A DNA stretch of 64,000 nt from an uncultured Bacteroidales bacterium (GCA_946624065.1 CAMORT010000002.1:10542-74541), one strand, 5' to 3'. Counted from the stretch's first letter, positions 21,482-59,557 are shown. Notes: generated by a model not told the origin, from the sequence alone. Program-made: numbers and translations.

Positions 21482-23101
21482 ATGAAAAAAGTTCTATTTT
21501 TTATCGCAATTTTTTGTGCAGTATTGTTCGGGGCAAAGGCTCAGAACACAGACGCCACCATCTCCAAAAATGACATCATCTATTGGGTGGGTAGCGGTGA
21601 TGATAGCGTCATCTTCGTGCTCAATATTGATACCACTTCTCTGGCATGGGGTTATCATTTCGACGCCAACAACGAGCCCACGGTTGAGGACATGATTGCC
21701 GACATTGATGCTGCCGATCCCCGCTTGGCCTACACTATCAGCTGGGAAACTTACGAATACACTTTCTATTATGTGAACCATCCGCTCAAACTGATGGCTG
21801 ACGAATTCCGTTTCAAAGTGAACGGTGTTCTGGCTTCCGTCCTTGAGGATTTCGAAGATTATGACCTCGCTGACAACATGATTGTGGTGGTCAGCACATC
21901 GGCAAGTGATACTTGGATCACCCCCATTGTTCCTGTAACGGTGGCCACCATGCCTGTGGATGCCACTATTTCCGCCGAGGACATTCTCTACTGGGTGGGC
22001 GAAGGCAGTAACGAAGCCGTCATCGCCATCAACTGGGGCGTGCCCGACACCGCACTCGCTTGGGGTTTGCGTTTCAATGACAACTTGACCGTCACTACCG
22101 CTTTGCAAGCTCTCGTCGCTGCTGAAAGCCGTCTCTCGACCAATTCCGCCATGTCAACTTTCGACTATACGGACGGGAATGTCAACCTCACCTTCCAGAG
22201 CACCTCTGGCAACTACATGCAATTCATACTCAACGGCAATCCGCAGGCCGGTCTGTCCAGTGCGGTAACCGACGGTGCGTTCCTCAAGGTGGGTGAGTCC
22301 GCCTACGGCATCGGCTACGACTCCACTGCTTTTGGAGGCAGCTGGTATCCTATGGGCGTGGTATGGCCGACCCCGATACATCCTGTTATGGCACCCGACA
22401 CCACAGCTATCCCTGAAGAGGCCACTATCGCTTTCAGCGACATTCTCTACTGGGTGGGCGAAGGCACGAACGAGGCCGTCATGGCCGTCAACTGGGCCGA
22501 CACCGCTCTGGCATGGGGTTACCGCTGGAACGGCACTGCCACCGTGGCCGACATGATGACCGACATTGCCGCCGCCGACCCGCGCTTCAGCTATACTGTC
22601 AACGGTTATCTCGATGACATTCTCTTCGTTGTGGCCGAAGGCGACACCCTCCGCAAGGTTCCCTTCAGCTATTGGGAGAGCAAGAACAACGGTGTGTCGG
22701 ATGCCGGTATGGGCCAGACCCTTGTCAATGGCGACTTCGAGAAGTGGGCTGAACCCGCCGCTGGCGTGGTTGTGGACAGCACCTACGATGAAACTTATAA
22801 CTATTGGTGGTACACTTATGTCTATCCGATGGCCATCACGCCCGTCTCCATCCCTACCTCTCATGACGGTATCAATAATCATGAGACGACGCGCATCATC
22901 GCCTATCCGAATCCTTGCACCGAGAATATTCGCGTACAAACATCTGTAAATGAGGAAGTTGTTGTGTATAACCTGCAAGGTGCCGTAATTATGAGCACCG
23001 TGGCACAGGGAGAAATCACCACTTTGGATGTAAACAATTTGCCTTCAGGTGTTTATTTTGTGAAGAGTGGCAGCAAAACCGCCAAGATTGTGAAGAGATA
23101 A
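21482..23101 (+). CDS. Secreted triple-repeat protein with a T9SS C-terminal sorting domain; function unknown (candidate corrinoid-binding protein)
   Basis: 539 aa with a signal peptide MKKVLFFIAIFCAVLFGAKAQ. Three repeats start at aa 24, 160 and 313 (nt 21551, 21959, 22418). Each opens D/EATIxxxDI(I/L)YWVGxGxxxxV.....TxLAWG. The CTD is ...IIAYPNPCTENIRVQ...LPSGVYFVKSGSKTAKIVKR. Confidence refers to the CDS call, not the function. Confidence 0.85.
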   Translation: MKKVLFFIAIFCAVLFGAKAQNTDATISKNDIIYWVGSGDDSVIFVLNIDTTSLAWGYHFDANNEPTVEDMIADIDAADPRLAYTISWETYEYTFYYVNHPLKLMADEFRFKVNGVLASVLEDFEDYDLADNMIVVVSTSASDTWITPIVPVTVATMPVDATISAEDILYWVGEGSNEAVIAINWGVPDTALAWGLRFNDNLTVTTALQALVAAESRLSTNSAMSTFDYTDGNVNLTFQSTSGNYMQFILNGNPQAGLSSAVTDGAFLKVGESAYGIGYDSTAFGGSWYPMGVVWPTPIHPVMAPDTTAIPEEATIAFSDILYWVGEGTNEAVMAVNWADTALAWGYRWNGTATVADMMTDIAAADPRFSYTVNGYLDDILFVVAEGDTLRKVPFSYWESKNNGVSDAGMGQTLVNGDFEKWAEPAAGVVVDSTYDETYNYWWYTYVYPMAITPVSIPTSHDGINNHETTRIIAYPNPCTENIRVQTSVNEEVVVYNLQGAVIMSTVAQGEITTLDVNNLPSGVYFVKSGSKTAKIVKR

Positions 23102-37755: not shown

Positions 37756-40700
37756 TTATTCTTGAGGCATCAATTGGAAATTCTTTAACAAAATAAACGA
37801 TGGCGAAATAATGGAAGATGGAATACCCCAGAATATATCTTGCTTGTTCATCTGTTTGGTATTCAGTTGCTTAAGAAGTTTGTTGAACACAACACGCTCT
37901 CTTGAAACACCTGATACTTTGTTCAATAGGTTGAAGTCAACGGACTCAGTTTGGGATACCCGAACGGGGAATGCCTCACCATTGGCAACTTTGATTCGGT
38001 TGACATACAGCGGCACAAGTCTAATATGACCATCGGCATCCTGCTGTTTTCCCATTTTTTCAATCCGATAGGCATATTTGTTTCCCGCTGCGCGTGCCTG
38101 CTTGAGCAATTCCTTGGTCAGCGCTCGTTCGTCCAATGTATTGTTTCCGGTTATTTCCAATATGCCTGCCCCTAATGCCGTGACCAAATACCCGTTGTTC
38201 AGACATAACTGCTGATGTCCGTTTGAGTATTTTCCGCTCTTGGTCGGAGTTCGGTTGGAGAGCAGTTCCAACAATTTACCTCTTTGAACCAATACGGTTT
38301 TCTTGTTGGGTTCCAATCCTTCCGCATCCAAAGTTTGATGCCCTATCAGATGTACGCCAGCCGTTATTTCCTGCTCATAATTGGCGGAAATATTCAACAT
38401 ATTGCTCGTAATCTGTTTGTTGAGCATCTTCATCCAAAAGTTGGGAGTATAGTTTTGAGTGTTAATGGGAGTCCGGACATTAAGCAATGAGGGTGCGCTT
38501 TCTATTAATAAGTAAGGGAGCAGCTCGGAAACAGCGTCTTTTGACAGCAGAACGGGACCATCGTAATACTCCGTGAGTTTTGGCGCATGAGCCCATTCCT
38601 GAAGGCGATGGGCCATTAAATCCACCTCTTGGTACAAGATTTCAATATCAGGCAGATCATGAAAATCGCGGTACAGCAGTTGGGTGTTGTCGTGCAGCGT
38701 GTCACCATCTTCCGTTATCGCAGACGCGTGAAGCTGAATGCAAAGAAGACGGAAGGGGCGGATATATTGGATGTTTTGCGCATTCGTGAAATACGCATTG
38801 GCTTGATACACATAAGTGGTGACTCCGGAGCTATAAAGCGTTGGATTATCATGTAAAAATCTGGCAGACAAATCGTTTGCCAAATATTCCACTTGCGAAA
38901 GGGATATTTCTTCCAGCGGTTTTTCGTTAAGCGAAGATTTGCTGAATGCCTCAGAACGGTCTTTCAGGGCATCTTTCCCATCACTGGGCACATGCGCTGT
39001 CAGTCTAACCTTTTCCTCATAATCCGTGAGCGCTTGCCGGTAGGCGTCTTCCGTGCACTGGTGCGCAGTTTGGACCATGTTCGCGTAATTGTTGTCCAAT
39101 GGCAGATTGCGTGATACCGTATTCGGACAGGAATAGAGGTTTTCGTTATTCAGCGTGTTGTCACCCACCAACAGGCGGGTATTGAGATGTCGTGTCGGTT
39201 GCTCGCATACGGAGAGCGTGCTTCCCATGGAACTTTCTACAGTATAAGTATTCGCATCGGAAATTAAATACTCAACATCGTAAGGTTTGGGATTTTTCAG
39301 CAGCATGCTGTCTGTGAAAAAACGCTGAATCTCATCTTGCATAACCTGGGTCGCAAGAGAAGGGAAGGCCAGCGGACTAGGAGTCTCGTCAAAGGAGACA
39401 GGAGCCAAAAGGGTATGTTTGGGTTGTGTTTGAAGTGGTTGAATATCAATCAGATAACATAACACAGACGGTGCGGTGCAGCGCACAGGTGCGGATGCTG
39501 TAATGGAGTTTGGAGCAATATTGAAATCGGAAATGTCGCCACCATCCATCACTTGGTTCCAAAAATGTTGGTTTTTCGGAATGGAAAGGCCTCGCACCAG
39601 TTCGTTGGCCCTGCCGTCAGCATAGACGCGAAATACCAATTGCGGCACAAATCCATCCGACTCCGAATAATGTATAGTCTGAATCCAATAGCCGTATTCT
39701 TTATTCTGGTTTTTAATCGTTTGTAACAACTTTTTAAACAAGTCGTTATCGGAGGAGTGCGGAGTGCACTCCACCCAAAGTTGGTTTTTATCCTGCCGAG
39801 CTCTTAAAATGGGATTTGACAAGGATGCGGGATCGCCGGAGAGGTAGTCATGGCAAAGAACCAGAGAGGCCGCCTGACTGGAGAACAAAACAGGGCATGT
39901 GGTTGTCGTGACGACCATAGGGGCATTGGCCTGCCGTTGCATTTTGTCGAACAAAGCGGTCTCTTCTTGCAGAATGGCATTTTTTTCAGGAAGATCCGAA
40001 GGATACTCCACCAGAAAATACTTTTCACAAGGTATGGTATAACCCTCTTCATCCGTAAGAGAGGCGGTAAGAGTTAGAAGTGTAACATTTTGATTGTGAG
40101 TTTTTTGAAATCCATTATTCCGGATATCGATCGAATGAGTGCAAGTGTAATGCAGGGTGGCCGTTCCCGACACTTGTGGACCAAAAGCGTTCCAAAGATC
40201 GGAGTATGCCTTAACCGTATTTTCCCATTCTTCCATTTGGAATCCGGAGCAGTAGTCAAGTTGGATTTCTGAAACAAACGGCGCTTCTGTCAGCGGGAAC
40301 GCATCATAATCCGTAGGTTTGCCCATTTTCTCCGAAAACTGTTTGTCCAAAAATGTTTTTTCAGCTTTAAGGTAAACATGCTGAACCTCGTGGGTAATAA
40401 TATGTTCCACTGCTGGAAAATTATAGTCAAGCGGCAGCAGAATGTTTTTTTCGGAAGAAGCGGCAATGACTTTTCCGCTTAATGGGTTGCCCACGAGTAG
40501 TTCCACCGTTAAGGTGCGGTAACTGTGGTGTTGTTTGGAGGTTAAACTCCCCATAGAAGATGCCAGGATATAGTCGTTGACAGACTCCAAATAGAAACGG
40601 AGAGAGCAAATGGGTGCTTCCCGGTTTTGGTAACGGGAATATTGTTGTTGAAGGGTATTCTGAAGGGCGTCAACAAACTGTTTCTCATCCGCCAACGATT

Positions 40701-40770
40701 GCGCTCTGCCGTTTGTGAGGAGCAGCAAACAGCAAAGGAGCAGGCAGGGGAGGAGGGTCAGTTTGCGCAT
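37756..40770 (-). CDS. Large secreted hypothetical protein made of two homologous ~480-aa halves (TldD/PmbA-like fold suspected)
   Basis: 1004 aa with signal peptide MRKLTLLPCLLLCCLLLLTNGRAQ. The internal duplication is visible, for example ICSLRFYLESVNDYILASSMGSLTSKQHHSYRTLTVELLVGN versus YDVEYLISDANTYTVESSMGSTLSVCEQPTRHLNTRLLVGD. Confidence refers to the CDS call. Confidence 0.85.
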   Translation of the reverse strand: MRKLTLLPCLLLCCLLLLTNGRAQSLADEKQFVDALQNTLQQQYSRYQNREAPICSLRFYLESVNDYILASSMGSLTSKQHHSYRTLTVELLVGNPLSGKVIAASSEKNILLPLDYNFPAVEHIITHEVQHVYLKAEKTFLDKQFSEKMGKPTDYDAFPLTEAPFVSEIQLDYCSGFQMEEWENTVKAYSDLWNAFGPQVSGTATLHYTCTHSIDIRNNGFQKTHNQNVTLLTLTASLTDEEGYTIPCEKYFLVEYPSDLPEKNAILQEETALFDKMQRQANAPMVVTTTTCPVLFSSQAASLVLCHDYLSGDPASLSNPILRARQDKNQLWVECTPHSSDNDLFKKLLQTIKNQNKEYGYWIQTIHYSESDGFVPQLVFRVYADGRANELVRGLSIPKNQHFWNQVMDGGDISDFNIAPNSITASAPVRCTAPSVLCYLIDIQPLQTQPKHTLLAPVSFDETPSPLAFPSLATQVMQDEIQRFFTDSMLLKNPKPYDVEYLISDANTYTVESSMGSTLSVCEQPTRHLNTRLLVGDNTLNNENLYSCPNTVSRNLPLDNNYANMVQTAHQCTEDAYRQALTDYEEKVRLTAHVPSDGKDALKDRSEAFSKSSLNEKPLEEISLSQVEYLANDLSARFLHDNPTLYSSGVTTYVYQANAYFTNAQNIQYIRPFRLLCIQLHASAITEDGDTLHDNTQLLYRDFHDLPDIEILYQEVDLMAHRLQEWAHAPKLTEYYDGPVLLSKDAVSELLPYLLIESAPSLLNVRTPINTQNYTPNFWMKMLNKQITSNMLNISANYEQEITAGVHLIGHQTLDAEGLEPNKKTVLVQRGKLLELLSNRTPTKSGKYSNGHQQLCLNNGYLVTALGAGILEITGNNTLDERALTKELLKQARAAGNKYAYRIEKMGKQQDADGHIRLVPLYVNRIKVANGEAFPVRVSQTESVDFNLLNKVSGVSRERVVFNKLLKQLNTKQMNKQDIFWGIPSSIISPSFILLKNFQLMPQE

Positions 40771-44264: not shown

Positions 44265-44298
44265 AAAAAAGGCAGACTCTAATGTCTGCCTTTTTTTT
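44265..44298. terminator. Bidirectional intrinsic terminator
   Basis: A6-GGCAGAC-TCTAAT-GTCTGCC-T8, between convergent genes. Confidence 0.8.
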
Positions 44299-45880
44299 AT
44301 TTTTTGATTACCTGTTTGGCCTTGAGGATGGTTTCGTCCGTTTCGTTGATGACGGGGTAGAAAGCGTCATTACCATATAGATTCCGCCCAATCAAGGCCT
44401 TAATCCACAATTTAAGTTCCTTTTTGGAGTTGGCGGTGAGATAGGGAGCTTTCTTACCCGTGAGTTTGGTATAATAGTTGAGCATTTGGTTCAGTTCCTT
44501 GTCTGAGAAAGAGGCTTTTGTCCTGAAGGTGACGGCATCGGGAAACTGTTTTTTCAGTTCGGTTTTGTGGTCGTTGGTGTAGTTGAAGGCGAATTGCACC
44601 AATGCGGCAGTGTTGGCCACCATATAATAGCCGTCGAGGTCATTGCCTTGATGGATGGGCACGAAATAGTCGGGCATGATGCCGCCTCCACCATACACGG
44701 TGCGTCCTCCGACGGTCTTATATGCGATGGACTTGTCCTGTTTGATGCTGTCGATATTCTCCATCTCGCCGCGGGCGAGGCGTTCGTAAATTTCTTCGTA
44801 ATAGGCCTCCGTGCCGTTCTTGTAGTCGCGTTGGATACAGCGTCCGCTGGGGGTGTGGTAGCGCGCGGTGGTGAGGCGGATGGTGGATTTGTCGGATAAG
44901 TCGAACTGTCTTTGTACCAATCCTTTGCCAAAGGAACGGCGTCCCACGATCATACCTCTGTCGTTGTCTTGCACCGCTCCTGCCACAATCTCGGCCGCCG
45001 AAGCGCTGAAGTCGTCAATGAGAACGACCAACTTGCCTTTTTCAAAGTTGCCCTTATGGGTGGCATAGATAATCTCCGGTCTGACTTTCAATCCTTCCAC
45101 CGACACAATCTTTTGGTTTTTGCCCAAAAACTCATCACACACGCCGATAGCGGCATCCAAAAAACCGCCCGAATTGCCGCGCAAGTCCAGAATCATGGAG
45201 GTCATACCCTTTTTTTTCAACTTGTAGATGGCGTCTTGGAACTCTTTCACGGTTGTGCTTCCAAATTCATTCATCTTGATATAACCGGTATGCGGATCTG
45301 TCATGTATGCCACATCAATGGTATAGGTGGGGATGACATTGCGGGTGATTTCGTATGCGTAGATGTCTTTGAACCCAGGGCGTATCACGCCTATTTTTAC
45401 CTTGGTGCCTTTTTTACCACGCAACAGTTTGAAAACCTGTTCATTAGAGGTTCCTATAATGGATTTGCCGTTTACGGTGACAATTCGGTCGCCGGCGCGC
45501 ACGCCCGACTTTTCCGCAGGACCACCTGATATGGTGGAGATTACCATTACGGTGTCGTTCATGATGTTGAACTGAATGCCCACACCCTCAAAGGCGCCAT
45601 TCAGCGACTCCATCATGGTTTTGTTCTCTGCAGGCGTGGCGTAAGCCGAGTGGGGGTCCAGACTGTGCAGCACACTGCTTATGGCTTGGTCATACACAGA
45701 ATCAATGTTGACGGAATCCACATAATATTGGTTAATGTATTGCATCACCTCGTTGAGTTTGTTGTTTTGCGTGTTCAACAAAACCGTTTTCCGCGAAGGC
45801 AGGAAATTGACTGCCACGGAAACGCCAAACAGAAAAGCGATGAGAAGGTATAAGAAGATAATCCAGTTGTTATGTTTCAT
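44297..45880 (-). CDS. S41-family C-terminal processing peptidase
   Basis: 527 aa with an N-terminal membrane anchor. PDZ region (GPAEKSGVRAGDRIVTVNG), catalytic-Ser region LRGNSGGFL, and DDFSASAAEIV. Confidence 0.88.
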   Translation of the reverse strand: MKHNNWIIFLYLLIAFLFGVSVAVNFLPSRKTVLLNTQNNKLNEVMQYINQYYVDSVNIDSVYDQAISSVLHSLDPHSAYATPAENKTMMESLNGAFEGVGIQFNIMNDTVMVISTISGGPAEKSGVRAGDRIVTVNGKSIIGTSNEQVFKLLRGKKGTKVKIGVIRPGFKDIYAYEITRNVIPTYTIDVAYMTDPHTGYIKMNEFGSTTVKEFQDAIYKLKKKGMTSMILDLRGNSGGFLDAAIGVCDEFLGKNQKIVSVEGLKVRPEIIYATHKGNFEKGKLVVLIDDFSASAAEIVAGAVQDNDRGMIVGRRSFGKGLVQRQFDLSDKSTIRLTTARYHTPSGRCIQRDYKNGTEAYYEEIYERLARGEMENIDSIKQDKSIAYKTVGGRTVYGGGGIMPDYFVPIHQGNDLDGYYMVANTAALVQFAFNYTNDHKTELKKQFPDAVTFRTKASFSDKELNQMLNYYTKLTGKKAPYLTANSKKELKLWIKALIGRNLYGNDAFYPVINETDETILKAKQVIKK

Positions 45881-45887
45881 ATTGTCG

Positions 45888-45943
45888 AGGCGTACGGCCG
45901 TACGCCTTTATTTGTTTAAGATTGGGATGCACGGCCGTGCATC
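45888..45943. repeat. Two GC-rich palindromes sharing a GYACGGCCGTRC core
   Basis: AGGCGTAC-GGCC-GTACGCCT (45888-45907) and GATGCAC-GGCC-GTGCATC (45926-45943), between two same-strand genes. Confidence 0.65.
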
Positions 45944-45944
45944 T

Positions 45945-46964
45945 TTACTGTTGTCGTTGTATGGATGTTTGGTGCAATAGTTCCAAAAACTGTGCCAGAA
46001 AATCACGATAAGCAGGATCCAGTCCTTCTTTTAGGTAGCGTTCCGTGACCTGCTGCCATTGTTTGGGCTGGACTACTGGCAGGTTGTTTTCTTTTTTGAT
46101 GCGTGCGATTTCGTCCACGATTTCCATGCGTTTGGCCAGCAATTCGCTCAGTTGGGTGTCCACATGCTCGAGCAGTGCGCGTTGTTTGATGAGTTCCGCA
46201 TTCGGCATGTCGGTTTTAAAGGTCAGAGACTGGATGAGGTCGCCCCATTGGGCAGGAGTCAGTTGCTGGGAGGCATCACTCAGGGCTTCTGCCGGACTAT
46301 AATGTGTTTCCAGCATAAGTCCGTTAAAACCATAATTCAAAGCGAGTTGTGCCACTTGAGGAATCCATTTCACATTACCGCAAAGGTGGGAAGGATCGCA
46401 CAAAATGGGCAGTTCGGGATAGTGAACTTTCAAGTCAATAGGGATTTCCCAGCAAGGGGCGTTGCGATACACATTCTCATTACCGTTGGCGAAACCACGG
46501 TGCACGGCGATAACTTGTGAGACACCCGCTTGTAAGAAACGCTCGATGTTGCCGATCCAGAGGTTGAGGTCAGGTACGATGGGATTCTTAACAAGGATGG
46601 TAAAGGGTTTCTCTTTGACCGCGTCGGCAATTTTCTGCACTTCGACGGGGTTCACGCCCGTGCGCGCACCCACCCACAATGTCGTAATGCCCGCCTTGGC
46701 GCAGGCGTCAACCTGTTTGGCAGTCATCACTTCGGTGCACACGCGGATTCCGAACCCCCGCTGCACCTCCCCTAACCAAGGCAATGCCTCATTACCCAAA
46801 CCCTTGAAACTGTTCGGGTTACTGCGCGGTTTCCATACACCTGCCCTGAAATAGTCCAACGCTATTCCAGTCCGCTTTATCTCCTGACTCAGCAGCTCGG
46901 CGGTTGTGAAGAGTTGATGTTCACTCTCCACGGCACAAGGTCCAGCAATCAAAACAGGTTTCAT
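45945..46964 (-). CDS. Bifunctional 3-deoxy-7-phosphoheptulonate (DAHP) synthase / chorismate mutase type II
   Basis: 339 aa. The N-terminus MKPVLIAGPCAVESEHQL is the KDO8PS-like DAHPS subclass. The C-terminal ~90 aa form an AroQ-like helical domain (LIKQRALLEHVDTQLSELLAKRMEIVDEIARIKKENNLPVVQPKQWQQV). Confidence 0.85.
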   Translation of the reverse strand: MKPVLIAGPCAVESEHQLFTTAELLSQEIKRTGIALDYFRAGVWKPRSNPNSFKGLGNEALPWLGEVQRGFGIRVCTEVMTAKQVDACAKAGITTLWVGARTGVNPVEVQKIADAVKEKPFTILVKNPIVPDLNLWIGNIERFLQAGVSQVIAVHRGFANGNENVYRNAPCWEIPIDLKVHYPELPILCDPSHLCGNVKWIPQVAQLALNYGFNGLMLETHYSPAEALSDASQQLTPAQWGDLIQSLTFKTDMPNAELIKQRALLEHVDTQLSELLAKRMEIVDEIARIKKENNLPVVQPKQWQQVTERYLKEGLDPAYRDFLAQFLELLHQTSIQRQQ

Positions 46965-46965
46965 C

Positions 46966-49900
46966 CTACTCTTCCTCTTCTAAGTTCGTATAGTATTTCT
47001 TCACAAATTTGTTCTTCCAACCGAGGTTGCCTAACTTATAAGAGAACGATGGCAAACCTTTGGCATTGTCAGGTGCCAGCGACTTGTTCTTCGGTTTGGT
47101 GTTCTTGATGGCTTCGTTGAAGTTTTTGTCCGAAGAATAACCCGAAACCACATTGTTGTCGAATTGGAAATAATAGTATTGGTCATCAAATTCAAAATAG
47201 AGGTAGAGTTTGTTGCGCGACCCCCGCTTTTCAATCACGATGCGGCCGGGAACCATCTTGTATATCGTTTTGGCACCGCAGATGATCAACGGAAGCGTGG
47301 TTTGCGATTTGAAGGTGGATTGGTCTTTGTCCCATTCAAAATCGATGTTGGAGAAGAGGAACTTCACCTGCAGCGCTTCGGGCAGACGGCGTTGCGTACC
47401 CAATGCCACATTGCGGGTATAGCGCTGGTATTCGGTTTTACCCAAGATGTTGTATAAGGCCATGTCGTACGCCTCATCGGAGGAAACATCCACAAAGTCC
47501 AGCGAGGTGGCGTTGTCCAATGCCTTGTTCATGCTCTTCATGGACTCTTCGTTGAAGAAGAAGTCAATGGAGGTGGTCAGATGCATTTCCGCTGAATCGG
47601 CAGTTATATAATTGATGATGGTACCATTGGTGACGAAATTCACACGTCCCAACTTGGTTCCCATATCAATGGTACCGGTACCCGTGGCCACACAATTGTC
47701 GGTGTTCAGTGTGATGATGTTGCCAGGCACAGTGGGATCCTGCAGTTTTTCCAAAGAGGCGGCCTTGTATTCGTGCGTTGCTTTGTCGTAAGTGATGTAT
47801 CCGAAAACATTGATGTATTCGGCATCGTTGAACTCATCTTTAGCTTCGCCGAATGCGGTGTAGATGCGACCTGTCTTGTTGGAGGAGGTGATGGCCACCA
47901 CCACTTTCCGGTCGTCCATGTCCTTGGTGCGGTCGTGCACTTGAAGCAAAATGTTGTTGGGGTCAACTTGTTGCAAGATCTTCATGGGCGCATGGCGGAT
48001 AGAGTCGCATCCATGGCGGATCTCAACACCACCAAAATAGGACAGGAAGGGTTGTGTGCTGTGCAACTCGGCGCGCCCGCTGAACCCGAACTGGTCGCTG
48101 AACTGGAAGTTCATCTCGGCAGGAATCTTGGCATCACCGAATGTTTCCTTGTTGAAATAGATGGTGTCAAAATAAATTTTCTGTACCCGCTGATTCTCGT
48201 CCACATAATCATAATAACCATTGGCATAGAACTTTGTGGCGGTCTGGAGACGGGTGTAGCAGTCGTATAGCTCGTGGAATTTGTTGTCCCTGCCAGCCAA
48301 AATGCGCGATTTGGGTAGCGGGTCCACATACGCTTTCTCGCGGATAATCACTTCACCATGCGCGGGAATGATGGCAGCGTCGCCAGCGTTGATGTAGCGC
48401 ACACCATGGGCAAAAATCACATTTTTGGTGAAGTCAAACTCCGCACTGAGGGCGGGGAAGTGGTATCCCACAGCTGGATCTGCCGCATATAATTCATTGT
48501 CAAGACTTTGCATATCAACCAGCTCGCGCGACGGGGTGTTGTCGATATCCACATTCTTGTATGGGTCATCCCATTTGAAACGCAATAAGGTGGAGTCGAT
48601 GGGATCCCATTCAAACTCAGAAGACTTGGCTTTAATCTCATTCTTCACAAAATAAACAATGGAAGCGGTGCCGTTGGCTTTGAAATGACCTTTACGGGTT
48701 TCAAAATTGATGTGGGAATTGTAGTTGTCGGTGGAGAATGCGATGTCCTCACCTTTGCTGATATCATAAATCCGCAAATCAGCGGTGTCGGAGAGCAATT
48801 CGTGATGTTTGAAGTCGAACAATCTGGAGGAGATGTCCGCTCTGCCAAATTTCACAATGCCGGTTCCTTGCATTCCGGAAGGCGTGATTTTGGAGTTGCC
48901 AGTAAGCAAAGTTTCATTGAACACGCTCATCGGATTCTTGATGGTGTGCACAAACATTTGATCCTTATAGGGTTCCCAGTGCAGATAACCGTCTTCCATG
49001 CTGGCGGGTGGGAATTCCACACCGCCTTGTTGTTCGGCCACAATGTGGTTGTTGGCGGAACCGTTGGTGGAATCCAAATAGAATACGAGACTGTCGGACA
49101 CCGTGTGGGAGGTGATGTAGTCGATTTCTCCATTACCACGCAATCCCCTGTTGCTCAAATCCACAACACCCTTGTATGAACCTTTTGTCCCGTACATAGG
49201 CAATCCGTTGGTGTGATGGGTGAAACCGAAGGAGAAGTCCGGTTGCACTTTCAACGGCTCGGAAATGTCGGGGAAGATGCCGCCCGACACCAGCGATCCG
49301 GTAAACTTCATGGAGTCAATGACAAAGTTGTCCAAGTTGACGATTCTGAAGGAGTTGACCGCATAATAAAAACGGTCACGCGTATAGACACCACCGAGCA
49401 CATAAGGTTTGTCATAAAACACCTTACCGCCCTTTCGTGCTTCAAAGATGGGGTATTCGGGAATGTCGGTCATGCCGGATTTGTTGCCCGGAGCATCCAC
49501 ATAAAGCACGCCGGAGAGTTCTTCAATGCGGCCTTGCACTTGACGGAGCGGATAGTCACCGTACATGTCCATTTTGCCGTTCTTGTCCTCCACATACATA
49601 ATCAAGGTGTCGATGACATTCATATCGACCAGGAAACGATCGTAGTTGAACTCGCAGTTGTGGGCGATAAAGTCAAACAGACCGCCGATGACGCGTCCGG
49701 AGAAGGTCATGTCGCGGTTTTTCTTTACCGTAACCAATTCGTTCATCGGATACACATTCACAATCTGCGGGTCGCTGAGCACAAAGAACTCACACCCCGT
49801 GATTTTCAAATCATTGGTCAGCAAATCCATGGAGGCGTAATGGTTCTTGGACTCCAGACGAATATAATCGTAGTCTTTCTTTTTAACCTGATTATTAAGA

Positions 49901-51429
49901 TATTGTGAAATCTTAGGGCGGAAGTGAATGCGGTTGTTGTTCACATCATACTCAATGAATCCGCGGGCGGCGAAGTCGAGCATCATGGCCTTGATGTCCA
50001 AAGGCGGTTTGTTGAACCAGCGGATGACATCTTCAATGGTGACATCTTCATAGCCGGCGGAGTAGAAAAGCTGCCAAAGGGTATAGAGCGGATTCACTTG
50101 GTTTACGCCGGCAATTTCGTGCATGACGGACTCATCATAATAATTTTGAGACTCGAAAAATGCGGATTGCTCACTGGTGTTGCCTACAATGGGTCGGAAC
50201 TCGATACGCTGCTCGTTGGTGTTCCATTGGATAGATTCTACCGTGATATCCAATTTATGGTATGAGTCGAAAAATGGGGATCTGCCAACCCCTTGCTTCG
50301 GGCGGGAAATGAGAAGTTCTTTGGTTTCGTTGTTGTACTTGAAATTGGCGGCAGGATGGAAAATGGAGTCCTCTTCTATATAAATGCTTACTTTGGCGTC
50401 TTCCGACAGCAGGTTGGTGGGACGAATCAGGAAGCTTTTGGAGGCGGCCTTGATAATGGGTTTCTTATCGCGAAGAATCGTGATGTTCGCCAAGGTGTCG
50501 CCGGATGAGGTTCCGTAAATGGAGGCGCCGCGCAACTCAAATCCGCCAACATAGTTCACATCCGTATATAAGTTATTGATTGCTATTGTTTTATCGTTAC
50601 TGATGAAACGGGGGTAAGTGGCCTTTTCTTCTGAAGTGGGCAGCACAGCTTTGTCAATAACGGTGCCCATAATAGGGCGGCTGAACAACTTTGGATAATG
50701 AAAGGTGATATTGGCGGCCTCCACTTTTGGAAAACGCATATCAATTTCGTAAGATTTCAATTCGGCTTTCACATTATCAGGCAAGCCAGCGCGATCCCAG
50801 TAAATGGTGCCCTGGGTGGCGTTGAATTTGATTCTGGCAGGATAGTAGCGCCCACTGACATCAACCACTGTCAAACTGTCTTTGGTAGAATGTCCTATCA
50901 AATCCACTCGTTTGAAATCGAAATAGGGTTCTTGGTCAAACCCCATTACCTCCGCTTGTCCGTCCACCACCCATTTGACATTATCTTCCTGATTCAGAAT
51001 GTTATTCCGGAAGAACCGCTCATAGAGCAGCATGTTTTTCTGGAACAAGGTGACGCTGTGCGTGGCGTGATACTCCACCATTTTCACCCAGGTCTCCGTT
51101 TCAGCGGCATATTCGCTGGACGCAAAGGCCATGTATGCGTGCATGTAGGACTGGAACTGCGGAATGGGGCGGAACTTGTGGCGCAACAAAGCGTTGGCTT
51201 CCTGAATGAACGCCAGTTGGTTCTCATAGTCGATGGAGGTGGTCCAAAAAGCGGTGAATTCCGCCAGCATGTCGTTGGCCTCTTTCTGCCGGTCTTTGGA
51301 CACGGTGGACAAATAAGATTTCATTTCCTCCACGGTGACGGTCGGGTCATTGGAGAAGGAGTTGAAACGCTGTGCGAAAACGGTGAAAACCGTGCAGCAT
51401 ACAGCGATAGTCAGAAGGATTTTTTTCAT
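46966..51429 (-). CDS. Very large secreted hypothetical protein (1487 aa)
   Basis: Uninterrupted 4.46-kb ORF with signal peptide MKKILLTIAVCCTVFTVFAQ. No motif I can assign. The start is 4 nt after the upstream stop, and the stop is 1 nt before the downstream start. Confidence 0.85.
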   Translation of the reverse strand: MKKILLTIAVCCTVFTVFAQRFNSFSNDPTVTVEEMKSYLSTVSKDRQKEANDMLAEFTAFWTTSIDYENQLAFIQEANALLRHKFRPIPQFQSYMHAYMAFASSEYAAETETWVKMVEYHATHSVTLFQKNMLLYERFFRNNILNQEDNVKWVVDGQAEVMGFDQEPYFDFKRVDLIGHSTKDSLTVVDVSGRYYPARIKFNATQGTIYWDRAGLPDNVKAELKSYEIDMRFPKVEAANITFHYPKLFSRPIMGTVIDKAVLPTSEEKATYPRFISNDKTIAINNLYTDVNYVGGFELRGASIYGTSSGDTLANITILRDKKPIIKAASKSFLIRPTNLLSEDAKVSIYIEEDSIFHPAANFKYNNETKELLISRPKQGVGRSPFFDSYHKLDITVESIQWNTNEQRIEFRPIVGNTSEQSAFFESQNYYDESVMHEIAGVNQVNPLYTLWQLFYSAGYEDVTIEDVIRWFNKPPLDIKAMMLDFAARGFIEYDVNNNRIHFRPKISQYLNNQVKKKDYDYIRLESKNHYASMDLLTNDLKITGCEFFVLSDPQIVNVYPMNELVTVKKNRDMTFSGRVIGGLFDFIAHNCEFNYDRFLVDMNVIDTLIMYVEDKNGKMDMYGDYPLRQVQGRIEELSGVLYVDAPGNKSGMTDIPEYPIFEARKGGKVFYDKPYVLGGVYTRDRFYYAVNSFRIVNLDNFVIDSMKFTGSLVSGGIFPDISEPLKVQPDFSFGFTHHTNGLPMYGTKGSYKGVVDLSNRGLRGNGEIDYITSHTVSDSLVFYLDSTNGSANNHIVAEQQGGVEFPPASMEDGYLHWEPYKDQMFVHTIKNPMSVFNETLLTGNSKITPSGMQGTGIVKFGRADISSRLFDFKHHELLSDTADLRIYDISKGEDIAFSTDNYNSHINFETRKGHFKANGTASIVYFVKNEIKAKSSEFEWDPIDSTLLRFKWDDPYKNVDIDNTPSRELVDMQSLDNELYAADPAVGYHFPALSAEFDFTKNVIFAHGVRYINAGDAAIIPAHGEVIIREKAYVDPLPKSRILAGRDNKFHELYDCYTRLQTATKFYANGYYDYVDENQRVQKIYFDTIYFNKETFGDAKIPAEMNFQFSDQFGFSGRAELHSTQPFLSYFGGVEIRHGCDSIRHAPMKILQQVDPNNILLQVHDRTKDMDDRKVVVAITSSNKTGRIYTAFGEAKDEFNDAEYINVFGYITYDKATHEYKAASLEKLQDPTVPGNIITLNTDNCVATGTGTIDMGTKLGRVNFVTNGTIINYITADSAEMHLTTSIDFFFNEESMKSMNKALDNATSLDFVDVSSDEAYDMALYNILGKTEYQRYTRNVALGTQRRLPEALQVKFLFSNIDFEWDKDQSTFKSQTTLPLIICGAKTIYKMVPGRIVIEKRGSRNKLYLYFEFDDQYYYFQFDNNVVSGYSSDKNFNEAIKNTKPKNKSLAPDNAKGLPSFSYKLGNLGWKNKFVKKYYTNLEEEE

Positions 51430-51433
51430 AATA

Positions 51434-52969
51434 CTATCCGTTGAACGGTTTGCCGTTCATATTGAACCACAAATCGATAACCTCTTTGGATTTCTTTTCT
51501 TGGATGGTGACTTTGTATAAATTCAATTTTTCGGCAATGCGCTTAACACTGTAATAATCAAGCACTTTGCAACCTTTGTGTTCTTTTTTGAGGAAGCTTT
51601 GGATAGTAGCGGAAAGGTTCTCGGGTTTGCCTTGCAGGCGGGTTTCCACAATGTTTCCAATAGGACTGATGATGCAGATTTCCTTGCCGCGAGCGCTGTA
51701 GTAGTGCGCTTCGTAATTCATGTCGTCGTTGGTCACCCATTCCGCATTCGTAACCCGCGGATATTTCAATTTGAAAACAGCTTGGATGTTTTCGGGAATG
51801 TCGGCGGCGCTGTTTTTCTTCTCGTCCAGCGACATGTTCATTTTAGCGTAGTATTTGTCCAGTTGGTCTTTCTCGTTACCTTTGATGTCGGAGGATACCA
51901 TTTCGGGATTCGCATCAATTGTACGCAGCAGTTTGCCGGTTTTGTCGAAGATAACCGTAGTGGGAATTTTGGCCTTGTAGTTGGCTTTCTCATAAAATTC
52001 CACCAGTGTTTTGTCGTTCTTGTCGGCTCTCGTCTCCTTGATAGCGGTTTTGAATTTGAATCCTTTATAGAAATCGTTGAGGTGCTTCAGCATCGGACCG
52101 GTTACTGCCTCTTCGGGGAGGGCGGTTATCGTTTTATCCCAAACACCCTCTTTGGAGAAATAGGCGGCTGTGGTTCTATCGGCATTGACGCATTTGGCAA
52201 CATATTGGTTGTCAATCTCATACCAATTCAAATCTTGAGGATGCAATACTTTTTTCACCAGAGCTTTCTTGACTGTTTCGGGAACTTCGGATTCATTTAT
52301 AGCCACATTGCCCTGTTCATCCGTAACCACAGGCTCGGGTTTGACTTTCTCTGGCTTTTCCGGTTTCTCCTTTTCCGGTTTTGCAGGTTTCGGTTCTGCC
52401 TTCACTGGAGCGGGTTTCTCGGTTTTCTTGGGTTCCGCATTCTGCTTCGGCGGATTGTTTTCCGCTATTTTTTCCTCCTTGGGTTCCACAGGATTTTTGA
52501 AGTTGTCGGGATCCGTGCGGGAGAGGAGTTCGCCTTTGTCACTGAAGGAAAGTTGCGAGGGTTTGAAACCGATGCCCTCTTGCTTCACCTCCACCATGTA
52601 GTGCAACGGAGCGTTTTCCTGCTCTTCCAAGAAGGAATTGCTAATGACGAAGTCGGGATAATTGGCTTTCACATATTCAGTGATGACAGACGGAAGCTCG
52701 TCTTTTTTGATGTCGTAGGTGGTTCGAATCCACTCGCCACCGGGCGAAATGTACGCTTTCCCAACGGAACCCTCATCCTTGAATGTGGCAATATAAACGC
52801 CAGATTCAAGCTGCCATGCGGAAACTTTCACATACGGATATTGGAAATCCATAGCTTGTGAAACCTCGGAAGGCACGTCTGCCGGCTTTATTTTTTGCGC
52901 AAACGATACGGGCAATGCAAGGAGTTGCATCGCAAATAAAATGACCGCTAATTTTACAAAATTCTTCAT
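51434..52969 (-). CDS. Secreted PepSY-like (putative beta-lactamase-inhibitor-like, DUF2874-type) repeat protein with a Lys/Pro/Glu linker
   Basis: 511 aa with signal peptide MKNFVKLAVILFAMQLLALPVSFAQ. Recurrent modules of the type VP..V......YP...V..W......YEA.F. Central linker PKKTEKPAPVKAEPKPAKPEKEKPEKPEKVKPEP. The family call rests on pattern only. Confidence 0.7.
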   Translation of the reverse strand: MKNFVKLAVILFAMQLLALPVSFAQKIKPADVPSEVSQAMDFQYPYVKVSAWQLESGVYIATFKDEGSVGKAYISPGGEWIRTTYDIKKDELPSVITEYVKANYPDFVISNSFLEEQENAPLHYMVEVKQEGIGFKPSQLSFSDKGELLSRTDPDNFKNPVEPKEEKIAENNPPKQNAEPKKTEKPAPVKAEPKPAKPEKEKPEKPEKVKPEPVVTDEQGNVAINESEVPETVKKALVKKVLHPQDLNWYEIDNQYVAKCVNADRTTAAYFSKEGVWDKTITALPEEAVTGPMLKHLNDFYKGFKFKTAIKETRADKNDKTLVEFYEKANYKAKIPTTVIFDKTGKLLRTIDANPEMVSSDIKGNEKDQLDKYYAKMNMSLDEKKNSAADIPENIQAVFKLKYPRVTNAEWVTNDDMNYEAHYYSARGKEICIISPIGNIVETRLQGKPENLSATIQSFLKKEHKGCKVLDYYSVKRIAEKLNLYKVTIQEKKSKEVIDLWFNMNGKPFNG

Positions 52970-52995: not shown

Positions 52996-53003
52996 CAAAG
53001 ATA
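52996..53003 (-). promoter_or_regulatory. -7 promoter box (TATCTTTG) for the 52969-44297 gene string
   Basis: The minus strand reads ATACTATCTTTGTCCC. Confidence 0.5.
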
Positions 53004-53014
53004 GTATTTTTTTG

Positions 53015-53022
53015 TACTTTTG
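53015..53022 (+). promoter_or_regulatory. -7 promoter box (TACTTTTG) for the MORN-repeat gene
   Basis: TTTGTACTTTTGCCCC. It supports the start at 53044. Confidence 0.5.
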
Positions 53023-53043
53023 CCCCTCCTAAAAATTGATTTT

Positions 53044-54363
53044 ATGAAGAAGATAACATTTTTCGTTTTTTGCCTTCTGACAACACTCCTTCTCGGGGCC
53101 CAGGATACGGTGAAAACCTATTGGAGCAACAACAAACTGATGTCTGCTGGCGTGGAATCCAAAGGTTTGGAACAGGGACATTGGATCTATTATCACAACA
53201 ATGGAGTGAAATGGACGGAAGGTGATTATAAGGATGGAAAGAAGGTTGGCGTTTGGAAAGTGTGGTATGAGGATAGGAAACTGGCCCAGGAGTACAATGC
53301 CCAAAACGGACCGTTCAAAAGTTGGTTCCGTTCAGGCCAAGTGGAAACGGAAGGGCAGTTCGCCGATGGAAAGCGTTCCGGAAAATGGACATTCTATCAC
53401 CCGAACGGCCGCCTCTTCAAAGAAGTGAATTATGTGGAAGACAGTGTGGACGGCCATGTGGTGGAATATTATGACGACGGCAGCAAATATTTTGAAGGCG
53501 ACTATACGAAAGGCGCACTCAACGGATACGCCTGCTGGTGGAGCCGTGACGGAAAGAAACAGATGGAAGGTTCTTCTGTGAATGACCTCCAGCAAGGGGA
53601 ATGGAAATACTATAATGACAAAGGCACCATAGGCAGCAAAGGCAGTTTTGACAAGGGCTTGCAGGTGGGCGAGTGGACCTATTATTACGATGATGGTTCA
53701 GTATGGAGAAAAGGGAATTATGTGGCCGGCAAGCGCGAGGGCTTGTGGAAAGCATGGTATGAGGACGGTAAACTGCAGCGCGAGGGACCTTTCAGCCAAG
53801 ATATGGAAAACGGATTTTGGAAAGCATATTTTCCGAACGGCAAAGTGCAGGACCAAGGCTATTTCAAAGACGCGCAAATGGATGGGGAATGGACTGGCTG
53901 GTATGAAAACGGCGCGCAGAAATACTGCATGCATTACAAAAGCGGCAAACTGAATGGTCTGTACCAATATTATTGGGAGGAAACAGGCAAACTTGCCCGC
54001 CAAGGGAATTATAAGGACAATCAGAAAAACGGGTATTGGAAAGAGTATGCCCAAAACGGAAAGATTTTGAAAGAAGGGAAATATGTGAATGACATGAAAC
54101 AAGGAAAATGGTCTTTCTACAATGTGTTGGAAAAGAAAGTTCGCGAGCAGAACTTCGTGAACGATGTTCAGGATGGCCCGTTCACGGAATACTATGATAA
54201 TGGTGTGAAACATTTTCAGGGGAGTTTTAAAGGCCGTCTGCGCGACGGGAAATGGTCGTGTTGGGGCCCCAACGGGAATTTGTACTACAGCGTTATCTTC
54301 TCCAAAGGAAAGAAAGTGAAGGAACTGTATGTTGCGGAACCGAAATCGGAACGTCCTTTCTAA
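53044..54363 (+). CDS. Secreted MORN-repeat-variant (YwqK-family) protein
   Basis: 439 aa from MKKITFFVFCLLTTLLLGAQ. At least 12 copies of the ~23-aa G.W..(W/Y)(Y/H).NG......G.Y..GK..G repeat. Confidence 0.85.
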   Translation: MKKITFFVFCLLTTLLLGAQDTVKTYWSNNKLMSAGVESKGLEQGHWIYYHNNGVKWTEGDYKDGKKVGVWKVWYEDRKLAQEYNAQNGPFKSWFRSGQVETEGQFADGKRSGKWTFYHPNGRLFKEVNYVEDSVDGHVVEYYDDGSKYFEGDYTKGALNGYACWWSRDGKKQMEGSSVNDLQQGEWKYYNDKGTIGSKGSFDKGLQVGEWTYYYDDGSVWRKGNYVAGKREGLWKAWYEDGKLQREGPFSQDMENGFWKAYFPNGKVQDQGYFKDAQMDGEWTGWYENGAQKYCMHYKSGKLNGLYQYYWEETGKLARQGNYKDNQKNGYWKEYAQNGKILKEGKYVNDMKQGKWSFYNVLEKKVREQNFVNDVQDGPFTEYYDNGVKHFQGSFKGRLRDGKWSCWGPNGNLYYSVIFSKGKKVKELYVAEPKSERPF

Positions 54364-57817: not shown

Positions 57818-59557
57818 TCAGAACACCAAAGTTTTAAATACTCTTTCTTTTTTCTCTTGACGCACTTTTACCAAATAAATGCCGTCGTTCCAGCGGTCGG
57901 TGGGGATGTCAAGCGTCTCTTCCGCACTTTGGGTTTGGTAGAGCATTTGTCCTGCAACTGAATAGACTTCCACTTGCACATTTTTGCCGGTCTCGTTCCG
58001 AATGGATAAGATGCCGTTGGTGACGGGATTTTGAGATAGAGTGACGGGCAGATACTCGTAATCTTCCACACCACCATATATTCTGACTTCCACCACCCAG
58101 TCTTTGGTAGTGCCGTCAGGTGTGGTTACTGTATAGGTCACCGGGAACCATAAATTCACGACCTCTTCAGAATTAGGTGTACAAGACACTCCCACAGGAA
58201 GCGTGATGGTGGGTTGAATGTGAGAAAGATCGGGAACCACACAACCGAATTCATAATAGAGGGTGTCTCCATATTCGGAGAAAGAAAACACAAAATCCTC
58301 ATCAAAGTTCGTGATTTGTGGATTTAAACTTAACAGGATCCTGTAATCCAAAATGTCCGGATTCAACTCCATAATGGGCTCGAAAGTCACCAATCCGTAG
58401 CTGTTGTTGTCCGGCTGGTGATAAATCACATCCTCCGCGTGAGAAGCATCATTACCACCCCAGTAGTTGCCGATGGCACTCATGTTGCAACTGGAATTGT
58501 TGTAAAGTTCATACTCCACATTGTTATTCCCGTTGTCATAAAGAATATTTCCACCCGGATCTTCAACGGTGCCCATGTCAATATTGTGGTTGTAAATGGC
58601 GGTAATGCCCCACAAATTACCATGGATGAGGTTTCGACGGATTTTGGCACCGCAAGAGGTGGTTGATCCGTATATGCTGATAGCACTTCCACCATTGTTA
58701 GGGTTTGTTTCCAAGTTGTTGTTTCGGATGATATTGTCTTGTATGATGGCATGAATATTTGTGCCGTTTTGCGTATATCCGTATCGGTTGTGTTCAATCA
58801 CATTGTTAGAAACCAGCAATAAGGTGTTGCTAGCGCCCATATTCATGATGCCGATGCCGCCTGACATGGTTTGCGCCACGCCTTCAATATGGTTGCCTAC
58901 AATATAAATGGTATCGGCGCCACCTGCCCCTAAGTTGATTTGTGGCACATTGGCGTTGCTTAAATCATTGTTATAGAAAATGTTATTTAAAATTTTTGGA
59001 GAGCTGGTTGTGTTCACAGCCGATGCGATGGCCGCTTTCTGGTTGTCGTGGAAATAACAGTTTTGAATGGTTGGATTACAGTTCATGATGTTGATAACCG
59101 CATCACTGAAATGGGTGAATTCACAATTGTCAAACTCAACCTGAACGGGATTTAACAATTGGATATGTTGTCCGTATTGAAAGTCAACATTGGAAAAATA
59201 GCCCGAGGCGGCATTTCCCAAGCAGAGCGTGAAAAAGGATGTACCCGTGGAATCGCCGGTGATAGAGAGAGGGTTGACACGGGGTTCGGTCATGATGGCA
59301 CCGTTGATGGTTATGGTAATACCATCATCAATCTGAATACCAGTAGCATTGCCTTCCAAAAATAAGATATCGTTGGCGGAAATGGTGATGTCCTGATGAA
59401 TTTGATAATAACCGTTTTGCGAAATGCTGACTGCCCCATATGCAGCTACGCATAATGAGGACAAATTATAATTCGTGCCGTTGCCCGGACTCACCCATTG
59501 GCCGGAAGCGGTAATGGAAACGATGGTTGCGACTAAAAGGCATATAATTCTTTTCAT
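57818..59557 (-). CDS. Secreted right-handed parallel beta-helix repeat protein with a T9SS C-terminal sorting domain
   Basis: 579 aa with a signal peptide. It has Asn-rich ~22-aa turns (NNIFYNN, VSNNVIEHN, IIRNNNL, IHGN). The CTD reads ...VTLSQNPVTNGILSIRNETGKNVQVEVYSVAGQMLY...DGIYLVKVRQEKKERVFKTLVF. Confidence 0.8.
   Translation of the reverse strand: MKRIICLLVATIVSITASGQWVSPGNGTNYNLSSLCVAAYGAVSISQNGYYQIHQDITISANDILFLEGNATGIQIDDGITITINGAIMTEPRVNPLSITGDSTGTSFFTLCLGNAASGYFSNVDFQYGQHIQLLNPVQVEFDNCEFTHFSDAVINIMNCNPTIQNCYFHDNQKAAIASAVNTTSSPKILNNIFYNNDLSNANVPQINLGAGGADTIYIVGNHIEGVAQTMSGGIGIMNMGASNTLLLVSNNVIEHNRYGYTQNGTNIHAIIQDNIIRNNNLETNPNNGGSAISIYGSTTSCGAKIRRNLIHGNLWGITAIYNHNIDMGTVEDPGGNILYDNGNNNVEYELYNNSSCNMSAIGNYWGGNDASHAEDVIYHQPDNNSYGLVTFEPIMELNPDILDYRILLSLNPQITNFDEDFVFSFSEYGDTLYYEFGCVVPDLSHIQPTITLPVGVSCTPNSEEVVNLWFPVTYTVTTPDGTTKDWVVEVRIYGGVEDYEYLPVTLSQNPVTNGILSIRNETGKNVQVEVYSVAGQMLYQTQSAEETLDIPTDRWNDGIYLVKVRQEKKERVFKTLVF

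Follow-up and report, generated by a model that had tools for sequence, protein, structure and literature searches.

A 64,000-nucleotide (nt) stretch of DNA from an uncultured Bacteroidales bacterium (GCA_946624065.1, CAMORT010000002.1:10542-74541), hereafter called the window, encodes a giant exported protein that is near certain to belong to a real and conserved family of secreted proteins in Bacteroidota. This family is undescribed in the libraries and literature that we searched. The gene resides on the minus strand at positions 46966-51429, where an ATG codon begins an uninterrupted open reading frame (ORF) for a protein of 1487 amino acids (aa) whose sequence starts with MKKILLTIAVCCTVFTVFAQ. 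An initial annotation, made from the DNA sequence alone, had noted an uninterrupted 4.46-kb ORF of this length with a cleavable-looking signal peptide, and our analyses confirm both the coordinates and the leader. Structure predictions further suggest that the protein contains one module with a fold like that of the lipopolysaccharide (LPS) carrier LptA, and a role in handling envelope lipids is the reading that we tentatively place first.

A functional gene that represents a new protein family

The mature giant protein has a computed mass of ~168 kDa, an isoelectric point (pI) of 5.4 and a grand average of hydropathy (GRAVY) of -0.44. Comparison with its closest relatives reveals strong purifying selection, with nonsynonymous (pN) and synonymous (pS) values of 0.05 and 0.70, respectively. 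We also examined 80 related loci in GTDB, all of which derive from Bacteroidales-type genomes obtained from metagenome or single-cell assemblies, and ORF calling recovered an unbroken ORF of ~1494 aa in 78 of these. Because of the low pN relative to pS and the intact ORF in nearly all loci, the giant ORF is judged to be a genuine gene, which is functional, under strong constraint and unsplit in relatives. The concern raised with the initial annotation, that the ORF might be split or pseudogenized in related genomes, is set aside by the 78 intact loci. The absence of internal repeats noted at that time is also borne out, in that Tandem Repeats Finder reports no tandem repeats in the gene and internal profile similarity is weak. 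Specifically, segment-versus-segment comparisons with hhalign relate residues 301-430 to residues 861-1000, and residues 517-700 to residues 1001-1150, with E values of only ~1e-4, and alignment of the entire protein to itself yields nothing informative.

Homologues of the giant protein are numerous. A word-indexed search identified 186 homologues, of which the 120 listed span 91% to 55% identity and are all ~1490 aa in length. These proteins are uniformly labelled ‘hypothetical protein’ and come from uncultured Bacteroidales, mainly from rumen and gut, and a second, profile-based search gave largely the same close relatives. An exhaustive phmmer search, in which query residues 288-1487 were compared with 1.84 billion cluster representatives (50% identity), matched 1552 representatives, including 911 with E < 1e-30. 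Among the 150 phmmer matches listed, nearly all are full length (~1460-1530 aa). Family members with a named source are assigned to Bacteroidales, Bacteroidia, Bacteroidota, Flavobacteriales or Cryomorphaceae (the last represented by QTN39397.1 from a 2.84-Mb genome), and again every one is called a ‘hypothetical protein’. The giant protein had been described as an orphan, a label that is refuted by 1552 homologous clusters across Bacteroidota and that holds for its annotation only.

Searches of the giant protein against Pfam, NCBIfam, PADLOC, PHROGs and the sequences of the PDB returned no match, and neither did a comparison of a 128-sequence family profile with the PDB. Remote members are likewise without a match in Pfam or NCBIfam (32 diverse members scanned), and a literature search found no description of the family. 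Thus, the earlier statement that the protein has no assignable family is upheld by sequence and profile searches alike. A phage or defence protein was rejected as a candidate identity.

Export and predicted location

Residues 1-19 (positions 51373-51429, minus strand) are predicted to form a signal peptide that is cleaved at VFA/Q, and Q20 is conserved. The hydrophobic core of this leader spans ~16 residues (ILLTIAVCCTVFTVFA), and no other segment of the protein is hydrophobic. Of 32 diverse members, 30 have a leader that ends in [AGST]-Q, specifically A-Q in 24 of them, and the remaining two are N-terminally truncated gene calls. A glutamine at position +1 (the ‘Q-rule’), which cyclises to pyroglutamate, marks substrates of signal peptidase I in Bacteroidetes. 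There is no lipobox, given that Q occupies position +1 in 30 of the 32 members and that the cysteines in the leader of the window protein are unconserved, and we therefore rejected the possibility of a lipoprotein, which would require Cys at this position.

The C-terminal domain of type IX secretion system (T9SS) substrates, Por_Secre_tail, was not found in the giant protein by the same Pfam search that identified two such domains elsewhere in the window. These are located in proteins encoded at 21482-23101 (plus strand) and 57818-59557 (minus strand), and their presence indicates that the organism has a type IX secretion system. T9SS cargo was rejected as an identity for the giant protein on the basis of its missing sorting domain. 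Family C-termini are variable and often acidic, and the giant protein has no aromatic C-terminal residue and no Pfam match to Plug, TonB_dep_Rec, Omp85 or LptD. We also considered and rejected an outer-membrane barrel, as there is no barrel signature or aromatic C-terminus, the whole-chain template modelling (TM) score with LptD is at most 0.20, and turns are uniformly short on both sides of the predicted meander. Similarly, no peptidoglycan-binding feature (OmpA, LysM, SPOR) or outer-membrane anchor is recognisable.

Because the leader is the only hydrophobic segment, and because the lipobox, T9SS domain and aromatic C-terminus are all lacking, the giant protein appears from its sequence to be a soluble exported substrate of signal peptidase I that most simply resides in the periplasm. 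The signal peptide and the empty family searches agree with the earlier proposal of a large secreted protein that can reasonably be considered for an undescribed part in envelope biology. All sequence tests for SusC-like and adhesin-repeat-like proteins were negative, as had been anticipated by eye.

Predicted structure and its local and global likenesses

Two overlapping AlphaFold2 models of 1200 residues each were produced from an alignment of 52 sequences with 27-82% identity. The model of residues 1-1200 has a predicted local distance difference test (pLDDT) value of 88.8 and a predicted TM score (pTM) of 0.59, and the model of residues 288-1487 has corresponding values of 88.3 and 0.56. 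All segments described here are encoded on the minus strand. An N-terminal bundle of seven helices (residues 29-142, positions 51004-51345, pLDDT mostly 84-93) is predicted to be followed by beta-meander region I, which comprises ~24 antiparallel strands (residues 144-427, positions 50149-51000). Next are a winged-helix-like insert (residues 433-514, positions 49888-50133) and beta-meander region II (residues 524-1290, positions 47560-49860), in which many antiparallel strands of ~10 residues are joined by tight turns. Antiparallel meander thus totals ~1100 residues, with the winged-helix insert within. The predicted chain ends with a mixed alpha/beta C-terminal domain (residues 1294-1487, positions 46969-47550) that includes two long helices (~1294-1343), a seven-strand sheet (~1357-1432), and short helices plus an acidic tail containing EEEE (~1435-1487).

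A robust local match found by Foldseek is to Escherichia coli LptA chain 2r1a_A, with a probability of 1.00, a TM score on target of 0.64 and a root mean square deviation (rmsd) of 3.6 Å over 134 columns. The LptA chains 2r1a_A, C, E, G and B and 2r19_B collectively give probabilities of 0.99-1.00 and TM scores on target of 0.56-0.64, and their superpositions (rmsd 3.6-4.2 Å, 134-138 columns) correspond to one jellyroll module of ~135 residues somewhere within residues 288-1487. Based on these models, the giant protein is predicted to contain at least one beta-jellyroll module of the LptA/OstA type.

The winged-helix insert matches MarR-family chains with probabilities of 0.93-0.99 and TM scores on target of 0.36-0.42, and family members sporadically produce weak Pfam matches to FaeA, FeoC, TrmB and MksE. 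However, unlike MarR-type proteins, this segment (residues ~433-514) sits in an exported protein. A DNA-binding role is therefore implausible, and the insert is probably a protein-interaction module.

Matches that involve the whole chain are weak (TM at most 0.20). They include LptD/LptDE (probability 0.87-0.90), ApoB100 (9ea7; 0.89) and a phage tail fibre (0.91), followed by viral chorein-N proteins resembling VPS13 (0.54-0.60, TM < 0.15) and MORN-repeat proteins (up to 0.47). In the models, the rest of the chain resembles an extended hairpin-meander sheet, a form that fibres and MORN arrays share with lipid-groove proteins. The structure prediction and Foldseek comparison suggested with the initial annotation was productive for local matches to LptA and MarR-type proteins, whereas for the whole chain it returned weak matches only. 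Both the LptA-like jellyroll and the winged-helix insert had been missed by eye.

Invariant polar residues cluster in the central third of the protein

Approximately 40 positions are invariant even among members with 27-30% identity, and many of these are Gly, Pro or aromatic residues. The central third of the protein holds an invariant polar set composed of H358, H391, S427, D519, D521, S552, D645, N649, K650 and S715. D1017 is also invariant, and D519 and D521 border region II, which contains most of the invariant polar residues as well as the invariant cysteines C1141 and C1246. Motifs that include invariant polar residues of this set are, for example, DSIYHP, SPFxxSYH, KxDYDxI, KKNRDxxFxG, IDxPxNKSG and SxGIFPD. 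Sequence conservation of this protein is far above what is expected for grooves of the AsmA/TamB type.

Genomic context of the giant gene

In the window, the giant gene is part of a tightly spaced series of four genes on the minus strand. The first (51434-52969) codes for a PepSY-like repeat protein of 511 aa (PF11396, E 1.6e-9, two stretches), whose leader ends in A/Q (VSFAQ) and whose repeats are separated by a low-complexity linker rich in Lys, Glu and Pro (KPEKEKPEKPEKVKPEP). Only its C-terminal ~290 residues are conserved in most relatives, as judged by tblastn matches to residues 217-510. Its TAG stop codon (51434-51436) is followed by 4 nt (tatt) and then by the ATG of the giant gene at 51429. 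Similarly, the TAG stop codon of the giant gene (46966-46968) is separated by 1 nt from the ATG at 46964 of a gene (45945-46964) for a 339-aa bifunctional 3-deoxy-D-arabino-heptulosonate 7-phosphate (DAHP) synthase/chorismate mutase (CM), which matches DAHP_synth_1 (E 1e-34) and CM_2 (E 3e-18). These junctions are as first reported. The fourth gene (44297-45880) codes for an S41 C-terminal processing peptidase of 527 aa with Peptidase_S41 and PDZ domains (Pfam).

A putative -7 promoter box, TATCTTTG (52996-53003, minus strand), resides 27 nt upstream of the PepSY-like ATG and conforms to the Bacteroidetes consensus TAnnTTTG. It is the sole minus-strand example of this sequence from 53003 to 44297, but TAnnTTTG is not enriched in the window (43 found versus 42 expected), and the box is therefore a consensus match rather than proof of function. 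The 64-nt spacer that precedes the S41 gene carries two GC-rich hairpins (45888-45943, minus strand) with the cores GCACGGCCGTGC and GTACGGCCGTAC. These palindromic cores are related (GxACGGCCGTxC) and lie 37 nt apart, and the window holds no further match (two found versus 0.04 expected). The spacer RNA has a predicted folding free energy (dG) of -23.2 kcal/mol (z -3.85), and no U-tract follows either hairpin. These structures could bring about partial termination, mark a processing site or have a stabilising role. Immediately after the S41 gene is a bidirectional terminator-like hairpin of 13 pairs with flanking A and T runs (44265-44296, no strand assigned), which is likely to be the end of the transcription unit. 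A search of the region with Rfam gave no match. The initial annotation had envisaged a single four-gene unit driven by the -7 box, which is plausible for the first three genes. Co-transcription of the S41 gene is less certain because of the two stable hairpins in the spacer.

Divergent from this series is a gene (53020-54363, plus strand) for a 447-aa MORN-repeat protein with eight MORN_2 stretches. Its own -7-like box, TACTTTTG (53015-53022, plus strand), is arranged back-to-back with the PepSY-like box at a distance of ~10 nt. The MORN gene and the genes for a metallo-beta-lactamase (MBL)-fold protein and folE are syntenic in the closest relatives only. Another unannotated secreted protein of 1004 aa, with the leader MRKLTLLPCLLLCCLLLLTNGRAQ, is encoded elsewhere in the window (37756-40770, minus strand), and has no match in Pfam (E at most 1e-5), PADLOC or PHROGs (E at most 0.01). 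It was considered as a paralogue of the giant protein and rejected, as hhalign shows no relation.

Comparison of the 80 GTDB loci reveals that the arrangement observed in the window is restricted to near relatives. The DAHP synthase/CM gene is located downstream of the giant gene in 47 loci, all from relatives with at least ~73% identity, and the S41 gene is found nearby in 42 loci, although in at least five of these (L010, L018, L019, L030 and L056) it is inverted. Neither gene is linked to the giant gene in any locus at 51-63% identity or in any of ten contigs that carry other, mostly more distant members. These ten contigs encode eight proteins that are ~27-33% identical to the window protein, as well as P0115 (55%) and P0350, for which the value of 27% refers to P0199 only. 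A PepSY-like gene is upstream of the giant gene in 45 of the 80 loci, and is absent nearby in loci at 51-57% identity and in all ten distant contigs.

Where the PepSY-like gene is present, it is usually separated from the giant gene by prmA, which codes for ribosomal protein L11 methyltransferase (PF06325, E 2e-39). The prmA gene is directly upstream of the giant gene in 34 of the 80 GTDB loci. Examples of this immediate adjacency include L007, L012, L084 and L086-L092, and in L084 prmA overlaps the start of the giant gene by 4 nt. Because the PepSY-like gene and prmA have moved jointly away from the giant gene in L037 and L065, the PepSY-like gene is associated with prmA rather than with the giant gene. 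The window contains no prmA, and its lineage has lost this gene from the position upstream of the giant gene.

The order tpiA-prmA-giant occurs in eight of the ten distant contigs, sometimes with clpS next, and the other two contigs differ. This order is kept from rumen Bacteroidales to marine Flavobacteriales-type contigs at ~27-33% identity. Other upstream neighbours are glgB-like genes or a yajC-x-coaE series. All conserved neighbours of the giant gene are housekeeping genes. Ancestrally, the giant gene belonged to the array tpiA-prmA-giant, and this housekeeping context suggests that it is expressed constitutively. A gene of the LptE family lies three genes upstream in the same orientation in one locus of the Bacteroidetes GWE2_29_8 type (L093, 2925-3431), a single case that may be coincidence. 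Two readings that follow from the initial annotation do not survive these comparisons: that the PepSY-like and giant genes form a pair, and that co-expression with the DAHP synthase/CM gene is meaningful. The tight spacing in the window reflects lineage-specific genome compaction and not a functional module.

Possible functions of the giant protein

We assign a probability of roughly 0.3 to the proposal that the giant protein is elongated, resides in the periplasm and uses putative Lpt-like sheet or groove modules to bind or conduct an amphiphile of the envelope. The groove or sheet would bind the acyl part of LPS, a phospholipid or a lipoprotein. The protein would then carry the lipid, or would dock by strand augmentation on LptC, LptF/G or the N-terminal domain of LptD, and would act as a pre-fused, anchor-less piece of a conduit from the inner to the outer membrane. 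This proposal draws on the predicted models, in which the highest whole-chain probabilities include the lipid-carrying beta proteins LptD/LptDE, ApoB100 and chorein-N. The giant protein shares with the Lpt jellyroll proteins (LptA, LptC and the LptD N-terminal domain) one superposing module, a periplasmic location and long antiparallel hairpin runs. Likewise, both ApoB100 and the giant protein have extended amphipathic antiparallel sheets. However, the TM score with this eukaryotic lipoprotein is only 0.11, and the match may reflect hairpin-meander geometry alone.

Several observations weigh against a lipid conduit. The likeness to LptA is limited to one module, and the giant protein is ten times larger than LptA and has no sequence or profile similarity to it. 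Unlike the Lpt jellyroll proteins, it also includes a helical bundle, a winged-helix insert, a distinct C-terminal domain and many invariant polar residues. The signal is partly that of a generic beta-hairpin meander, because tail-fibre and MORN proteins are among the top whole-chain matches. Comparisons of the family profile with Escherichia coli LptA, LptC, LptD and TamB by hhalign give probabilities below 1%, signatures of the OstA_N, LptC and OstA_2 families were not found in the giant protein, and the 32 scanned members have no Pfam match to OstA, LptC, AsmA or TamB at E values up to 1. Unlike LptC and AsmA-like proteins, the giant protein lacks a membrane anchor. No lpt, lol, bam or tam gene is a conserved neighbour (LptE occurs in L093 alone). 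The giant gene is not linked to lptB, lptC, lptD, lptF, lptG or kds genes, and its neighbours are instead prmA, tpiA, clpS, the PepSY-like and DAHP synthase/CM genes, glgB and yajC/coaE. Finally, an invariant polar cluster is not usual in a passive lipid groove, and speaks for a site of specific binding, metal coordination or catalysis, or for an interface with a partner.

This polar cluster is the foundation for a different and somewhat unlikely explanation, in which the giant protein is a periplasmic enzyme or a glycan- or metal-binding protein whose target is a polymer of the envelope, for example peptidoglycan, LPS core or O-antigen, or capsule. Residues ~350-770 would form a metal-dependent site and the beta domains would be sandwiches of the carbohydrate-binding type. 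Polar residues in central loops and at strand ends that remain invariant at 27-30% identity, including the DxD residues D519 and D521, are consistent with such an activity, as is the strong purifying selection, and the housekeeping gene context suits a core envelope function. However, the 32 members have no match in Pfam or NCBIfam to a glycoside hydrolase, lyase, carbohydrate-binding module (CBM), peptidase or transferase, no enzyme is present among the high-probability Foldseek matches, and the invariant Asp, Asn and His residues could equally be structural Ca2+ sites. It is also unlikely that the protein is a non-transporting envelope scaffold, which might serve as a periplasmic spacer or tether, or as an assembly platform that uses its winged-helix and C-terminal domains. 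A large, soluble, beta-rich and probably elongated protein would be appropriate for this purpose, the pTM of 0.56-0.59 despite a pLDDT of 88 is in keeping with this shape, and the winged-helix insert resembles an interaction module, as do the helical domains at both termini. The structural matches to tail fibres and MORN-type proteins, as well as the lack of a conserved transporter partner encoded nearby, also favour a scaffold, whereas the missing peptidoglycan-binding, lipobox or outer-membrane anchoring features argue against it, and it is not obvious what an LptA-like module would do in a pure scaffold.

Far less probable is a highly diverged phospholipid bridge of the TamB/AsmA type, formed by a repeating beta-groove (‘beta-taco’) that runs without a break along the periplasmic part. 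Like AsmA-like proteins and TamB, the giant protein has ~1500 aa, is beta-rich and probably elongated, and exhibits a weak chorein-N resemblance in Foldseek matches. Its length nearly equals that of Flavobacterium johnsoniae TamB (Fjoh_4592, 1494 aa), and its C-terminal sheet and subsequent acidic tail recall the pseudosubstrate domain and disordered tail of this protein (PMC12045153). However, Bacteroidota TamB proteins are readily recovered with an E. coli TamB query (PMC12045153), whereas none of the 32 members matches AsmA, AsmA_2, TamB or DUF490 in Pfam (E up to 1), hhalign with E. coli TamB gives a probability of 0.6%, and no TamB chain is among the top 50 PDB matches. Moreover, a cleavable A/Q leader replaces the uncleaved N-terminal transmembrane segment that anchors these proteins in the inner membrane, and TamB has no counterpart of the N-terminal helical bundle or the winged-helix insert, both of which interrupt the beta pattern. 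A TamB/AsmA identity is thus largely refuted by sequence tests, in agreement with the first impression. Equally doubtful is the functional module suggested by the initial annotation, wherein the giant protein operates together with DAHP synthase/CM and the PepSY-like protein, and perhaps also with the S41 peptidase. The 4-nt and 1-nt gaps, the single -7 box, the terminator after the S41 gene, and the presence of PepSY-like and S41 genes in 45 and 42 of the 80 loci, respectively, would be expected of such a module, but it is already contradicted by synteny. DAHP synthase/CM and S41 linkage ends at ~73% identity, prmA parts the PepSY-like and giant genes in most loci that hold both, the PepSY-like gene and prmA can leave the giant gene together, and the S41 gene can be inverted. 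In addition, a cytoplasmic enzyme of aromatic amino-acid synthesis has no plausible shared role with an exported protein.

A more elaborate version of the lipid-handling proposal, which we regard as improbable, is that the giant protein constitutes a third bacterial bridge-like lipid conduit, wherein a single exported, anchor-less chain of ~168 kDa made from fused Lpt-type jellyroll or groove modules spans the periplasm of Bacteroidota. If this is true, the giant protein would use strand augmentation to connect with partners in the inner and outer membranes. In lineages of which most are uncultured, it would replace LptA oligomers or AsmA-like proteins, or supplement them.

Implications

More than 1500 clusters from rumen, gut, wastewater and marine Bacteroidota have been without a name, a Pfam or NCBIfam model, or a solved relative. 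The family can now be defined for annotators by its length, its A/Q leader, the motifs KKNRDxxFxG, IDxPxNKSG and SxGIFPD, and its synteny with tpiA and prmA, and this definition helps to make sense of a considerable amount of unannotated sequence even without a function. Furthermore, the comparisons made here illustrate that genes can be packed very closely in a Bacteroidales operon without sharing a function. The one recognisable module predicted in the giant protein is the fold with which bacteria move LPS through the periplasm, and the Lpt, Tam and Lol systems of Bacteroidota already depart from the E. coli model. If the giant protein does handle envelope lipids, it would be a new component of outer-membrane biogenesis in these organisms.

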